This document shows, in pieces, positions 12,162 to 44,294 of a DNA stretch of 64,000 bases (its first letter is position 1; each line of letters opens with the position of its first letter). Origin of the DNA: Deltaproteobacteria bacterium. GTDB taxonomy: Bacteria > Desulfobacterota > Binatia > Binatales > Binataceae. The notes under the pieces were generated by a model. The model was not told where the DNA came from and did no database searches. It worked only from the letters and a program-made list of their open reading frames with translations. The stretch covers positions 2,855 through 66,854 of the forward strand of contig JAFAHS010000411.1 in the NCBI GenBank assembly GCA_019237115.1, in the 5' to 3' direction. A program made the translations under genes and the position numbers.

Positions 12162-12196
12162 GTGATCGGTTTCGAACCGACGACCTCGTGCTTGGC
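12162..12196. repeat. distal att-like copy of the tRNA-Gly 3' half (35-bp perfect direct repeat)
   Basis: gtgatcggtttcgaaccgacgacctcgtgcttggc is identical to 44227..44261. Confidence 0.8.
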
Positions 12197-12332
12197 CATC
12201 GCAGAAGAGAAGAAACGATAGAGACCTCCCCAGATCGCTCGATAGAGCTTGAAAGCGTTGAGTCCCAAGGGCTTTCAGCATTCTGCCATTGCCTCTGAAC
12301 GGTAATGGCTTTCACCCAATGGTATCTAGTTC

Positions 12333-12378
12333 GGGCACAAAATGTGGCACCTCAGGCCACAAAATCGGGCACAATTTC
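12333..12378. repeat. cluster of short direct repeats GG(G/C)CACAA(A/T)(A/T)T, candidate arm-type recombinase sites
   Basis: gggcacaaaatg (12333), ggccacaaaatc (12355) and gggcacaatttc (12367) lie in the non-coding 360 bp between the distal att copy and the last eCIS gene. Confidence 0.3.
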
Positions 12379-12558
12379 GCCAAGCGACGTTATGATTTGC
12401 CGGGCAGCGTCCTCGCACTCCGAACCGCAGCGTTGGCCGTTGGCGGCGCTTGATTCGCTGGACCATCATCTTGACGGAGAGTGAGCCCCACCTTTGACCC
12501 GGTCAGCAGTACAAGCGAATTGACAACTTCACCGGCGCGGGAAATCGAGCTTCCTTAG

Positions 12559-14415
12559 CTACTCAGCGAATACAGAAGTCGTCGGGGCTGTCGTGTTGTA
12601 GTTAATAGCGATGGTCTCGCCGACGCCCAGCTTGAATGCGCCGGCGGTCAGCCCTGTGGCCGTTCCGTTGATCGCGATCTGGGAAACATCGCCTCCCGTC
12701 ACCACAATGCTCTTGGGACTATGCCGCACCGTATAGACGGTCGCGCTTTGAGGATTCTGGAGGCCCGCGGCAACCTGATTCGTCAAATCACTGCCGGCGC
12801 TTGGCCACGGATTCGCAATTACGCCCACCGGATTGTAGCCCGTGTTGTTGACCACCACCGAAGCGGTGCCGAGCAGGTTGATCAGATTGCCGCCGGCGTT
12901 GCTGAGCAAGTTCTGACCGAGGTTCCAACTCTCCGAAGTGCCGGAGCCGCCCGTCATGTCGATCGCCGGTGTCTGCCCCGTCCCTTCGATCCGATTGCCA
13001 GTCATGAGGACATGCGTCGCATCGGACAACTGGATTGCAGCTCCACCGGCTGATGAATTTGCGTTCTCGAATACATTGCCGACAATCACGAGATCATGCA
13101 CCGGGACGCTGTTGGCGATCGCCGGGCCGGCGCAGTTCTTAATCACATTGCCCGAAATCACGTGATGGGAGGTCTCCTTGGGTGAATCCGAGGACGTTGC
13201 CGTGAAAAAGATCCCGGTCCCCGGGAGGCCCGCGATCGGCGTTACATTCGCAATCATGTTGCCGACGATGGAGGCGCCGCTTGCACCCGGCCCAATCAGC
13301 GAGATGCCGCGGCCGGCCGGCTGCAGGATCGAACAGCCGACGATCGAGCAGTTGCGTGCGCGTAACTGAAAGCCGTACGCTTCGTTGGCGGACGATCCGG
13401 TGGCCACCCCGATCCCGCCGATCGCCACGCAACCCACAAAGGCCACATTCTCGGCCGGCTGGTGCGTGTCGAAATGCACCGTATCAGTAAGCATCGAGGT
13501 ACAGTGTGACACCACGATATTGCGCTGCACGCCGTTTTGAAAAGTGCCGCTGCTGCCGCCCGTCGTTACTGAATGGCGCGTGTGGGAAAAGCGGCAGCCG
13601 CTGATGCTCACGTTCTGGGAGGCCCCGCCGACAACGATTCCATAACGTTCGTTGGCGGGCGGCTGGACGTCGCTGATGTGATGGATATAGCAATCCGAAA
13701 TCTTGGCATCGCGCACGGATTGAAGCTCGATGCCGCTGTGGAAAGCGTCGTGCACCTCGAGCCGTTGGATCTGCAAATTCTCGATGAAGCGGAAGTGGGT
13801 AAAGCCCAGCTTCAGCGTCGACGAAGTGGCGTCGGTGGTGAGCGAGAAATCCGATAGCGTGATGTTCTCGAGCATTGTCGGCTGCACCAACTGCGCGGTA
13901 TCGGCCACGGTATACGTATCAAACACTTGGTCGTCGACCAGGACTACGCCTGAGGCGGCGGTATCCGGCCGGACCTGTTTCACCTCGCCGGCATGCTTGG
14001 TGGGAATTTCGGTATCCACCGACTTGTTCGAAAACAGCAGCACGTAGTCGTTGGGCTGGAACGAAGCCGCATCCCCCGCCGCGAGTTGCAGCGAAGTGTC
14101 GCCCCTCGCGGTATCCGCGGTTAGCGGACGCGCCGTGCCGAAGGTCAGTTGAGAGGCATCCAGGGCGGGCGACGCCGGGCTTCCGGTCATCATCTGGCTG
14201 CTCGCCACAAACACCGTGATACCCATCCCCTCGCCTTGAATCTGAACGTTGCTCGACGTGATCTGGATCGAGCTGGTGAGCGGATAGGTCCCCGCCTTCA
14301 CGAAGATCTTGCCGCCGGTTGCCGGCAACGCGTTGATCGCCGACTGCAAATCAGTGAAGTCGCCGTTGCCGGCAATATCCACTACAAAAGTAGCCTCAAA
14401 GCGGTCTATCGCCAT
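12559..14415 (-). CDS. tailspike-like right-handed beta-helix protein (pectate-lyase-3 type N-terminus)
   Basis: 618 aa. 'GNGDFTDLQSAINALPATGGKIFVKAGTYPL...VQIQGEG' resembles the N-terminus of phage tailspike/depolymerase proteins. Repeated beta-helix turns follow. It is the last gene of the eCIS operon. Confidence 0.65.
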   Translation of the reverse strand: MAIDRFEATFVVDIAGNGDFTDLQSAINALPATGGKIFVKAGTYPLTSSIQITSSNVQIQGEGMGITVFVASSQMMTGSPASPALDASQLTFGTARPLTADTARGDTSLQLAAGDAASFQPNDYVLLFSNKSVDTEIPTKHAGEVKQVRPDTAASGVVLVDDQVFDTYTVADTAQLVQPTMLENITLSDFSLTTDATSSTLKLGFTHFRFIENLQIQRLEVHDAFHSGIELQSVRDAKISDCYIHHISDVQPPANERYGIVVGGASQNVSISGCRFSHTRHSVTTGGSSGTFQNGVQRNIVVSHCTSMLTDTVHFDTHQPAENVAFVGCVAIGGIGVATGSSANEAYGFQLRARNCSIVGCSILQPAGRGISLIGPGASGASIVGNMIANVTPIAGLPGTGIFFTATSSDSPKETSHHVISGNVIKNCAGPAIANSVPVHDLVIVGNVFENANSSAGGAAIQLSDATHVLMTGNRIEGTGQTPAIDMTGGSGTSESWNLGQNLLSNAGGNLINLLGTASVVVNNTGYNPVGVIANPWPSAGSDLTNQVAAGLQNPQSATVYTVRHSPKSIVVTGGDVSQIAINGTATGLTAGAFKLGVGETIAINYNTTAPTTSVFAE

Positions 14416-42331: not shown

Positions 42332-42996
42332 GATCGGTCCTTCCTTCCATTCGTGTTCGCGCAAGCCGGCCAAGCTGATTTTTTATTGCTGGATAACCAC
42401 CAACCTCCTGCGCTGGTGATCCCTCGGCTGCGCCGACTATGCGCGCCTGGATCTCCAAATTCGCGGACGCGATCCTCACCGGGTGGAACTCGCCCGGTTG
42501 CGGCGGTATCAGCGCTTCGGGAGAGGAGAGACCGTAGATGGCTCGAAACTCACATCGTCCCTCCCTTGCGCATCCTAACCGCGCCGCGCCGAACAAAGCG
42601 ATCTGCGGCCTTCGTCGACGACGCAACGTTCTCCGTTTCCCGCAAGTCGCCGGCGCATTTCCCGTGAGTCGGGGACAACTTTCTCAGCTATTAACAGAAA
42701 ATCAGTTGGAACTAAAGGAAACCGCAAGTTTCGGCTGTTCACTCCGCATTCAGTGCCGGCGCAACTCGCCGGGGAATCTTACCGCGACCCAATATTGCGG
42801 GGAGTCACTTACAAAGCTCCCTCGACCTGCTCGCCATAAAAGGAAGAGTTCTTGAAACAGCCGTCTTCCAACTAGTTTGACAATAGGTCAGTAGAAATTA
42901 ATCTGCCGCCGCATACAAGCGGGAGTCAGCGTTGCGGGCAACGGATTAAACGCCAGGTGGACCACATCAAGCTTCGTCTGAGCGGAGTGTCGATCT

Positions 42997-44156
42997 TTGT
43001 GGACTGGCCGTGCTTTCGGGCCTGCTCAGTTCCCGAGAATCGGCGAAAGCGACAAGGACCGGCAAAACAAACCCTATTGGTACAAATTCGTTTTTCAAGG
43101 ACAGCTCGTCCGCGAATCTGCGAAGACGAATTCCAAGACGGTGGCGCGCGAAGCTGAACGTGCTCGCCGTTGTGATCTTGAACTCGCGATCAATCGGGTT
43201 TCGCGACCGGAGCGCGTGCCCCTTTTCTCCTCCGCAGCCAGTGATTGGCTCAAGACTAAGCAGTCACACTGAAGGTCACTACAAGCAATACGTGGCCAGC
43301 CTATCCTGTCAGTTTGGGAAACGACTCGTGTGCGACATAACGGCCGAGGACATTTGCGAGTTGCAGGCACTCCGGCAGAGTCAGGGAAAGTCCGGACGAA
43401 CGATCAACGCTATGGGTGGGGTGCTGCGCCAGATATTCAAGCATCAAAATCTGCGGGCGCTGCATGCCGACCGAGCGCGTTTCTTTCGAGAAAGACGCGA
43501 CATCGGACGCGCGATTTCTGTCGAGGATGAAGCAAAGCTTCTTGATTCGATGCAAGGTAGCCGCTCACCGAGTCTAATGCCTTTGTTCGTCGTCAGCATC
43601 GACACTGGGCTGCGCGCTTCAGAGCTACGGAATCCGTATTCGCGATTTGCAGGTAAGCTGGGCTGACCGAGAAATAGTTTCCGGAGAGCTGGTTGCGGCG
43701 CGTTCCAAAACAGAGGGGGGCACTGGCCGCATTATTCCGTTGACGCGGCAGGTGTGCCAGGTCCTTTCTTCTTGGATCCGCGAAAGCGTCGTTAGCGAAC
43801 CGGATGCTTACCTCTTTCCTAAACACCAGATTGGTTTTGAGGGTAACAGTCGCCGGCCCTTGATTTACGGCATCGACCGAAGTCGTCCGATGGCGCAATG
43901 GAAGTCAGCTTGGAAAGCTGCTCGTCGGCAGGCAGGTGTCGACTTTCGCTGGCATGATCTGCGCCACACTTTCATCTCCCGGTTGGCTGAGAACCCGAGA
44001 GTTAGCGAGCAAACCATTACCGCCTTGGCCGGACATGTGTCCAAGCGGATGCTTGAGCGATACAGCCACATTACGAGCTCAGGCGAAGCGAGATGCGATC
44101 TCGATGCTAGAGTCGCAAGCGGGATGGGCACGAAATTGATGGGCACCCCGGGATGA
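42997..44156 (+). pseudogene. tyrosine recombinase/integrase disrupted by two frameshifts
   Basis: Homology runs through three frames. Frame 1: 'KPYWYKFVFQGQLVRES...DWLKTKQSH*' (42997-43272). Frame 2: 'HTEGHYKQYV...SIDTGLRASEL' (to about 43625). Frame 3: 'IRIRDLQVSW...KTEGGTGRIIPL...WHDLRHTF...LAGH...MLERYSH' (to 44156). Catalytic R, HxxR and Y are visible. Confidence 0.7.
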
Positions 44157-44218
44157 GTCGAACCTGCAGGTCGGAACCGACCAAATCGTTAAGACTTTGA
44201 ATTTGCAAGGAAATTCTT

Positions 44219-44294
44219 TGGAGCGGGTGATCGGTTTCGAACCGACGACCTCGTGCTTGGCAAGCACGCGCTCTACCAACTGAGCTACACCCGC
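44219..44294 (-). tRNA. tRNA-Gly (anticodon GCC), CCA encoded
   Basis: I folded it by hand: GCGGGTG-TA-GCTC-AGTTGGTA-GAGC-G-CGTGC-TTGCCAA-GCACG-AGGTC-GTCGG-TTCGAAA-CCGAT-CACCCGC-T-CCA, 76 nt. Confidence 0.9.
44227..44261. repeat. proximal att-like 35-bp repeat inside tRNA-Gly (tRNA nt 34-68)
   Basis: Identical to 12162..12196. Confidence 0.8.

Follow-up and report, generated by a model that had tools for sequence, protein, structure and literature searches.

Among the genomic islands and prophages integrated in tRNA genes, an 'anticodon-loop' sublocation class has reportedly been distinguished (Williams 2002, Nucleic Acids Res 30:866, as cited in PMC8213781). In this mode of integration the tRNA 3' half is duplicated in the attP site of the element, so that the gene is restored. 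Islands of this class, which encode lambda-type tyrosine integrases, are bounded on one side by an intact tRNA gene and on the other by a direct repeat of its 3' part that starts in the anticodon loop, with the integrase gene beside the tRNA, repeated arm-type motifs in both attachment (att) arms and tandem arrays at hotspots. Loci for extracellular contractile injection systems (eCISs) have been described as horizontally acquired and either plasmid-borne or tRNA-integrated (Geller et al., PMC8213781, Fig. 7), and the tRNA example was attributed to likely homologous recombination between identical tRNA genes (PMC8213781). The DNA analyzed here is a 64,000-nucleotide stretch of a Binataceae genome (the window; contig JAFAHS010000411.1, assembly GCA_019237115.1), in which an eCIS operon lies next to a tRNA-Gly(GCC) gene. 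We consider it likely that the ~32-kb island at 12162-44294 entered the 3' half of this chromosomal tRNA gene by site-specific recombination with the eCIS as cargo, and was then fixed.

The locus shares with anticodon-loop islands the features listed above, and differs from them in that its integrase is a pseudogene, no excisionase is present, and the distal repeat is truncated at tRNA nt 68 and followed directly by a 5-nt mismatch patch. Like the loci of Geller et al., it comprises a whole eCIS operon at a chromosomal tRNA gene and has close kin, apparently in distant taxa; unlike them, it has a nameable integrase family with defined att arms, and a Binatia-type host. The architecture is that of a classical tRNA-integrating island, and the locus is read as a clear but ordinary acquisition of a weapon with later fixation. 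It provides a well-resolved example of the acquisition of an entire eCIS, with base-exact boundaries and an identified integrase family, offers predicted att arms that are testable with intact integrase relatives, and puts on record a tRNA-Gly hotspot used more than once in Binatia, an uncultured lineage that has received little study. The current picture is unchanged, because the horizontal spread of eCISs, including tRNA insertion, has already been published (PMC8213781).

Boundaries of the island

The 35-mer GTGATCGGTTTCGAACCGACGACCTCGTGCTTGGC was found in two exact copies in the window, at 12162-12196 and 44227-44261, both on the plus strand, and no further copy was found there with up to 3 mismatches allowed; shuffled sequence (100 shuffles) contained 0 copies, and 0 are expected by chance. 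The sole tRNA detected in the window by ARAGORN was tRNA-Gly(GCC), on the minus strand, and Rfam agreed (71.5 bits). By coordinate arithmetic the proximal 35-mer is nt 34-68 of this gene. One boundary of the island is thus an intact tRNA and the other a direct repeat of its 3' portion, as in tRNA-integrated islands. The perfect repeat and its position within the intact tRNA had been put forward in the original prediction, which was made from the letters of the window, and both were reproduced exactly.

The same distal junction is spanned by an independently assembled contig of a different sample (L080, 98.9% identical, covering window 10620-12666) and is therefore not an assembly artefact. In that sister strain the distal repeat is 37 bp long (tRNA nt 32-68), and the window therefore has one later substitution, at 12197. 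The 3' part of the tRNA-Gly gene from ~nt 32 on was presumably supplied by the element. Read in tRNA sense, the 8 nt outside the distal repeat are TGTTCCCT, compared with CCGCTCCA in the tRNA itself; the acceptor end is not reproduced, as had been pointed out. A degenerate partial core copy that had been proposed at 44171-44190 was dismissed as chance, with 73 matches of equal quality in the window against 36-58 in shuffles.

Attachment arms

An element-specific tandem motif of ~10 bp was found in both arms: on the proximal side ~65-95 bp separate it from the tRNA 3' end, and on the distal side it recurs 110-180 bp inward of the repeat. The two ends of each element, of the window as of four others (L091, L113, L150 and L165), had the same motif, which differed from one element to the next (Table 1). 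This end-to-end co-variation is the pattern expected of arm-type sites, and on sequence grounds the motif is probably an arm-type binding site of the integrase. All three matches to the window motif in the 64 kb (at most 1 mismatch) lie within ~200 bp of an island end; the proximal motif is kept at the same position in L082, L083, L084 and L086, and the distal arm of the window aligns with that of L091 over ~200 nt. Since repeat and arm motif occur at both ends, both ends are taken to be genuine att arms of this integrase family, with the eCIS between them.

Integrase pseudogene and integrase family

The original prediction placed an integrase gene 62 bp from the tRNA 3' end. The distance was correct, the final open reading frame (ORF) fragment ending at 44156, but the supposed gene is a multiply frameshifted pseudogene: frameshifts were located near 43263, 43633 and 44075, the last of them followed by an in-frame stop (near 44137), the beginning of the gene has been lost together with its start codon, and homology to intact relatives of 390-414 aa could be traced only across three reading frames. 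The reconstructed integrase matches PF00589, and its best match among database proteins has 70% identity; what stands next to the tRNA is thus a decayed PF00589 homologue rather than a functional tyrosine recombinase. An independent assembly (L089, 99.4% identical, window 38388-44103) showed no indel differences in the integrase gene, and these shared indels indicate that the lesions are real and older than the strain split. Inter-strain substitutions were 4.7-fold denser in the integrase and intergenic DNA (21/1772 bp) than in eCIS coding sequence (10/3944 bp), a contrast consistent with constrained eCIS genes and an integrase under relaxed constraint; non-synonymous and synonymous changes stood at 6:4, a sample too small to say more.

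Homologues of excisionase, zf-CGNR, M78 and sigma-54 activator were sought in the window and none was found; an excisionase-like HTH_17 gene, of which the window has no counterpart, adjoins the integrase in relatives. With the integrase decayed and no excisionase present, the locus is therefore regarded as a former integrative element that is now immobilized, that is, as a fixed island. The description of the locus as a dedicated integrative element accordingly held for the placement of the eCIS in a tRNA-Gly island with att arms at both ends, and failed for present mobility.

The closest integrase homologues (61-75% identity) adjoin tRNA-Gly(GCC) in the same orientation in L082-L086, L090, L091 and L097, and farther members of the family are similarly placed beside tRNA-Met, Lys, Thr, Val, Pro and Arg. 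Integrases of the Binatia family typified by database protein P0001 converge on the tRNA 3' end, as does that of the window, and the family is common in Binatia, each member being tRNA-adjacent. Different relatives carry different cargo, among it helicases of the DnaB or AAA_25 type, HTH_17, zf-CGNR and a protein that weakly matches M78 peptidase. Repeat extents were taken only from elements with both ends inside the retrieved DNA and, by tRNA nt, are 32-82 in L091 (a complete tRNA-Gly element of 8.3 kb), 30-77 in L113, 28-76 in L150 and 33-75 in L165, so that in complete members the repeat starts in the anticodon loop (nt ~28-33) and reaches the tRNA 3' end; the inner boundary at nt 32 in L091 matches that of the window and L080.

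Further observations were made on members of this family. Tandem arrays occur at their tRNA sites: L113 has two successive tRNA-Thr repeats (1863-1907 and 4060-4107), with the arm motif only at the inner one, and the outer flank of L091 (repeat 2860-2910) resembles another integrase-end remnant. A conserved 'AQNWAQS' near the integrase C-terminus coincides with the arm motif at the DNA level. The integrase ORFs annotated as database proteins P0001, P0002 and P0004 extend into the tRNA gene, and the ~18 residues at their C-terminal ends (..RVIGFEPTTLCLASTRSTN) are tRNA-Gly translated in antisense; these gene calls are therefore over-extended.

Comparative junction and the older element

The nearest genome, L001, shares 90% DNA identity with the window over 12 kb of right flank (82.5% at third codon positions) and the match, which begins at 56183, breaks off exactly at 44219, where the tRNA 3' end lies. 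The following 240 nt of L001 align with window 12161-11935 (~70% identity) and not with the island. Aligned with the tRNA 3' half and downstream integrase start of L001, window 11935-12196 is 69.7% identical. The sequence directly outside the distal repeat consists of tRNA-downstream-like sequence and the first ~30 codons of a second integrase, frameshifted (tblastn, 62% identity over 24 aa, E=1.7e-4). The 65-aa N-terminus of this integrase visible in L001 matched annotated site-specific integrases in plasmid records by tblastn; Pfam did not recognize it, and PHROGs gave only a weak unknown family. Because L001 joins the tRNA to the distal outer flank with the integrase stub, the earlier suspicion of an older, decayed tandem element is supported: the island sits between tRNA-Gly and an older integrase element, and the tRNA-Gly site is a recombination hotspot.

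The eCIS and its relatives

Between 42331 and 12559 every large ORF reads on the minus strand. The tail module comprises an AAA ATPase with a winged-helix domain, a Pvc16_N cap, a 304-aa unknown protein, a T4_baseplate-like protein, tube and sheath; the baseplate and spike module comprises two Baseplate_J-like proteins, gp25 and a Phage_base_V spike, with weak matches to DUF4280/PAAR-like and CIS_tube and two further ORFs of 387 aa (no Pfam match) and 120 aa (a single PD40 repeat match). The large distal ORFs, which abut or overlap the baseplate genes, encode a DUF6519 protein with immunoglobulin (Ig)-like domains (960 aa) and a He_PIG Ig-repeat protein (1499 aa), presumed to be fibre or target-binding proteins. 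Sheath, tube, spike, gp25, gp6-like baseplate, Pvc16/Afp16 cap and Afp15-type AAA ATPase thus stand in one cluster, in which no capsid genes were found by Pfam. The genes are uninterrupted and agree in length and order with the closest relatives, L087 and L088, and the cluster is read from its genes as a complete eCIS of ~30 kb, of the Serratia antifeeding prophage (Afp)/Photorhabdus virulence cassette (PVC) type, with DUF4157-type toxins.

Compared with Afp and PVC, the cluster has in common the sheath, tube, Pvc16-type cap, AAA ATPase, spike, gp25, Baseplate_J and DUF4157-marked toxins, as well as the lack of capsid genes. It differs in having the tail module first and the baseplate last, and in having large Ig-repeat, DUF6519 and beta-helix proteins instead of a recognizable Afp13 fibre. 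Pfam gave no assignment for a tape-measure protein (Afp14) or a tail fibre (Afp13); the 304-aa ORF at 38229-39143 is a candidate for these roles, as are the He_PIG, DUF6519 and beta-helix proteins. Within the toxin module, a direct repeat of 185 nt (72% identity; 33037-33221 and 34494-34678) corresponds to the eCIS_core (DUF4157) domains of adjacent genes, which indicates that the two regions are paralogous and arose by local duplication.

The last cargo gene, 219 bp off the operon, encodes the right-handed beta-helix protein. Its homologues at 77-78% identity, on the JGI contigs of P0303 and P0305, are single genes with no eCIS around them. The earlier statement that the interval contains nothing except the eCIS and the integrase is for this reason only approximately correct. 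One of the lone homologues lies between housekeeping genes; the other has an integrase and a transposase as neighbours.

The closest sheaths (81-85% identity) were found in other genomic contexts: in L087 beside mreBCD-PBP2-rodA with a sigma-54 activator, in L088 beside a sigma-54 activator and tRNA-Ser, and in two JGI contigs with a sigma-54 activator or a GerE-type regulator. None of these four close relatives has the integrase of this family next to the sheath. L087 encodes an MreB that belongs to a 90% cluster, and the named proteins of this cluster are from Bryobacteraceae/Acidobacteriota, so that on sequence evidence near relatives of this eCIS appear to exist in another phylum, one of them in a likely Acidobacteriota genome. 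Viral contigs were scanned with the sheath and, separately, with an integrase homologue, and neither scan gave a match.

In these relatives a sigma-54 enhancer-binding protein (or GerE-type regulator) lies directly upstream of the sheath (L087 8527-9588, L088 3481-4869). The window differs in that this activator is missing: no such regulator and no convincing sigma-54 promoter were found upstream of its sheath (42332-43000). An ORF of ~60 aa upstream of the sheath (~42376-42555) is, by alignment, apparently common to L087. In the region of L088 around 1516-2406, the eCIS (84% sheath identity) is ~1 kb downstream of tRNA-Ser(GGA), on the opposite side of which a truncated, frameshifted tyrosine-integrase remnant is present; L088 may be another tRNA-associated insertion of this eCIS lineage.

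Proposed history and alternatives

In the history favored here, an element of the integrase family carrying the eCIS would have integrated through recombination between its attP and tRNA-Gly, crossing over in the anticodon loop. As attP would hold a copy of the tRNA 3' half, nt ~32-76, the tRNA gene would have been restored. The island would thereby have been inserted between the tRNA and the older integrase element, of which the stub survives at 11.9-12.16 kb; the integrase would later have decayed and the island become fixed, with the injection-system genes staying intact. Beyond this, the cargo may have been essentially one complete 30-kb eCIS that moved as a unit between phyla, landed in tRNA-Gly and was domesticated, a proposal that we advance tentatively and regard as rather doubtful. 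If it were true, eCISs could be self-contained integrative 'weapon cassettes' with a nameable and testable recombination system of integrase, 45-bp tRNA core and co-varying arm motifs, in which the mobility genes decayed and the weapon was kept, with relatives in Acidobacteriota and Binatia.

Several results weigh against integration with the eCIS as cargo. On the proximal side independent contig coverage reaches 44103, the end of L089, short of the junction itself, and the L001 contig ends 372 bp after the tRNA. The proposed check for an empty site was answered in part: the L001 tRNA joins the sequence beyond the distal repeat, but no locus joining the left-flank genes of the window (thiolase, ChsH2-like, LssY_C-like) to the tRNA was found, and the left-flank proteins had no counterparts downstream of tRNA-Gly in L001-L013, the left flank being syntenic in none of the relatives retrieved. 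A compositional comparison of island and flanks, also proposed originally, barely separated them: GC content is 0.646 in the island and 0.60 and 0.63 in the flanks, the tetranucleotide correlation between island and host is 0.89-0.91, compared with 0.905 between left and right flanks, and the ranges of GC content at third codon positions (GC3) overlap. The k-mer and GC3 contrast was too weak for use, and composition was rejected as an island marker. No eCIS genes were found among ~85 integrase-family loci, and the island has neither the helicase (AAA_25 or DnaB) nor the HTH_17 backbone genes of its relatives; hence the eCIS may have come in situ into an element that was already resident. The distal repeat also ends at nt 68, where family members reach nt 75-82, and nt 69-73 form an in-register 5-nt mismatch patch (TGTTC vs CCGCT), with weaker similarity farther on.

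An entry in situ would mean that the att ends and the integrase belonged to a small resident element of the usual 8-20 kb, whose backbone was replaced by the eCIS through homologous or illegitimate recombination, and that the eCIS was never integrase cargo. The eCIS-free family loci and the missing backbone genes speak for such a replacement, as do the regulators that stand in place of an integrase upstream of the closest eCIS kin and a composition near that of the host; these same loci and kin also deprive the island of the status of 'direct' evidence for transfer of the whole machine that had been claimed for it. Replacement would require two events, not one, and the DNA that is not cargo amounts to only ~0.7 kb between sheath and integrase and 0.36 kb between the beta-helix gene and the repeat, both stretches consisting of att-arm or integrase sequence with no backbone remnants found in them. 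Entry in situ is accordingly considered unlikely. Far less probable is that the repeat is no att site at all. It would then be an assembly chimera, or a tRNA-derived repeat that is dispersed or arose by chance, and the eCIS would have been inherited vertically at this locus. This is already contradicted by the occurrence of just two copies with zero expected by chance, by a repeat start (nt 32) that is that of the family's complete elements, by the family arm motif and arm homology beside the distal copy, by the recurrence of the distal junction and of the sheath-integrase segment in independent contigs from another sample, and by the absence of the island at the tRNA of L001; the undistinctive composition and the lack of the tRNA 3' end in the repeat are what would agree with it.

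On integration with the eCIS as cargo, the stop of the repeat at nt 68 calls for a separate account. Simple decay of nt 69-76 was rejected, since 0-1 changes in 37 nt adjoining 6 changes in 8 nt are incompatible with uniform drift. The provisionally preferred view is that the repeat may be chimeric. A fresh distal repeat would have recombined with an older, decayed repeat left by an earlier occupant, the intervening DNA being deleted; the young copy would then have contributed nt 32-68, and the old one everything beyond. Alternatively, the second integrase may have catalyzed an event at the acceptor end.

Feature map and flanking genes

Table 1. Features of the island and its surroundings in the 64-kb window, with arm motifs of related elements
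Feature	Position	Strand	Basis or remark
Remnant of an older, different element, outside the island	11911..12161	-	ATG ~12011
Distal direct repeat (attR core)	12162..12196		tRNA-Gly nt 34-68
Distal att arm	12197..12400	+	
Distal arm motif copies	12333-12343, 12355-12365, 12367-12377		first copy GGGCACAAAAT; 135-181 bp inside repeat
Right-handed beta-helix (pectate-lyase-like) protein, 618 aa	12559..14415	-	Pfam Beta_helix/NosD
eCIS operon	12.6-42.3 kb	-	
Two large distal operon genes	14634..21987	-	Pfam
Baseplate and spike module	21888..30820	-	Pfam
Toxin module: DUF6714, eCIS_core(DUF4157)+Ntox16 toxin, eCIS_core+OmpA protein	30893..34780	-	Pfam
eCIS tail module	35081..42331	-	Pfam
gp19-type tube	39814-40341	-	
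Sheath, 656 aa	40361-42331	-	start from identical database protein P0121
Tyrosine integrase pseudogene	43060..44190	+	homology to intact relatives; same indels in L089
Proximal arm-type motif pair	44126..44151	+	GGGCACGAAAT TGAT GGGCAC; 68-93 bp from tRNA 3' end
Intact tRNA-Gly(GCC) (attL), holding the proximal repeat 44227-44261	44219..44294	-	ARAGORN, Rfam
CDP-alcohol phosphatidyltransferase	44344-44931	-	Pfam
NadB-like oxidase	45119-46720	+	Pfam
Arm motif, window			GGGCACAAAAT
Arm motif, L091			CCCCACAAAATCCCCCACAG
Arm motif, L113			AGTCCCTGTGAAAGTCCCTGTAG
Arm motif, L150			AGTGTGACGTGAGTGTGACG
Arm motif, L165			GGCACAAATT..GGCACAGTC

The right flank carries genes for CDP-alcohol phosphatidyltransferase, NadB-like oxidase, ClpA, ClpS, FemAB-like, RmuC and ArsA proteins. 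In L084 and L085 tRNA-Gly is followed by these genes in the same order, as it is in L082 up to the contig limit (FemAB-like); Binataceae contigs show this order, the ClpA of L082 being named Candidatus Binataceae. A 637-aa ORF at 44339-46252 (minus strand) was used as the first right-flank query and was afterwards rejected as a gene, having no Pfam match and overlapping two Pfam-supported genes; it is probably an antisense artefact, and the loci retrieved with it remain valid DNA-level relatives.

In the left flank, the LssY_C-like ORF (10875-11597, minus strand) overlaps the convergent ChsH2-like gene by 255 bp and matches its Pfam model partially. Window and L080 differ by three indels in this ORF, which is probably a pseudogene within a degraded zone left of the island. 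A left-flank protein encoded at 1384-2283 was considered as kin of the island beta-helix protein and found to be unrelated. The window is without tRNA-Cys. In two other Binataceae loci, the distance from tRNA-Gly to tRNA-Cys is 42 bp (L009, 10687-10729) and 9 kb (L003, 12176-21273), which suggests a further insertion at the same hotspot.

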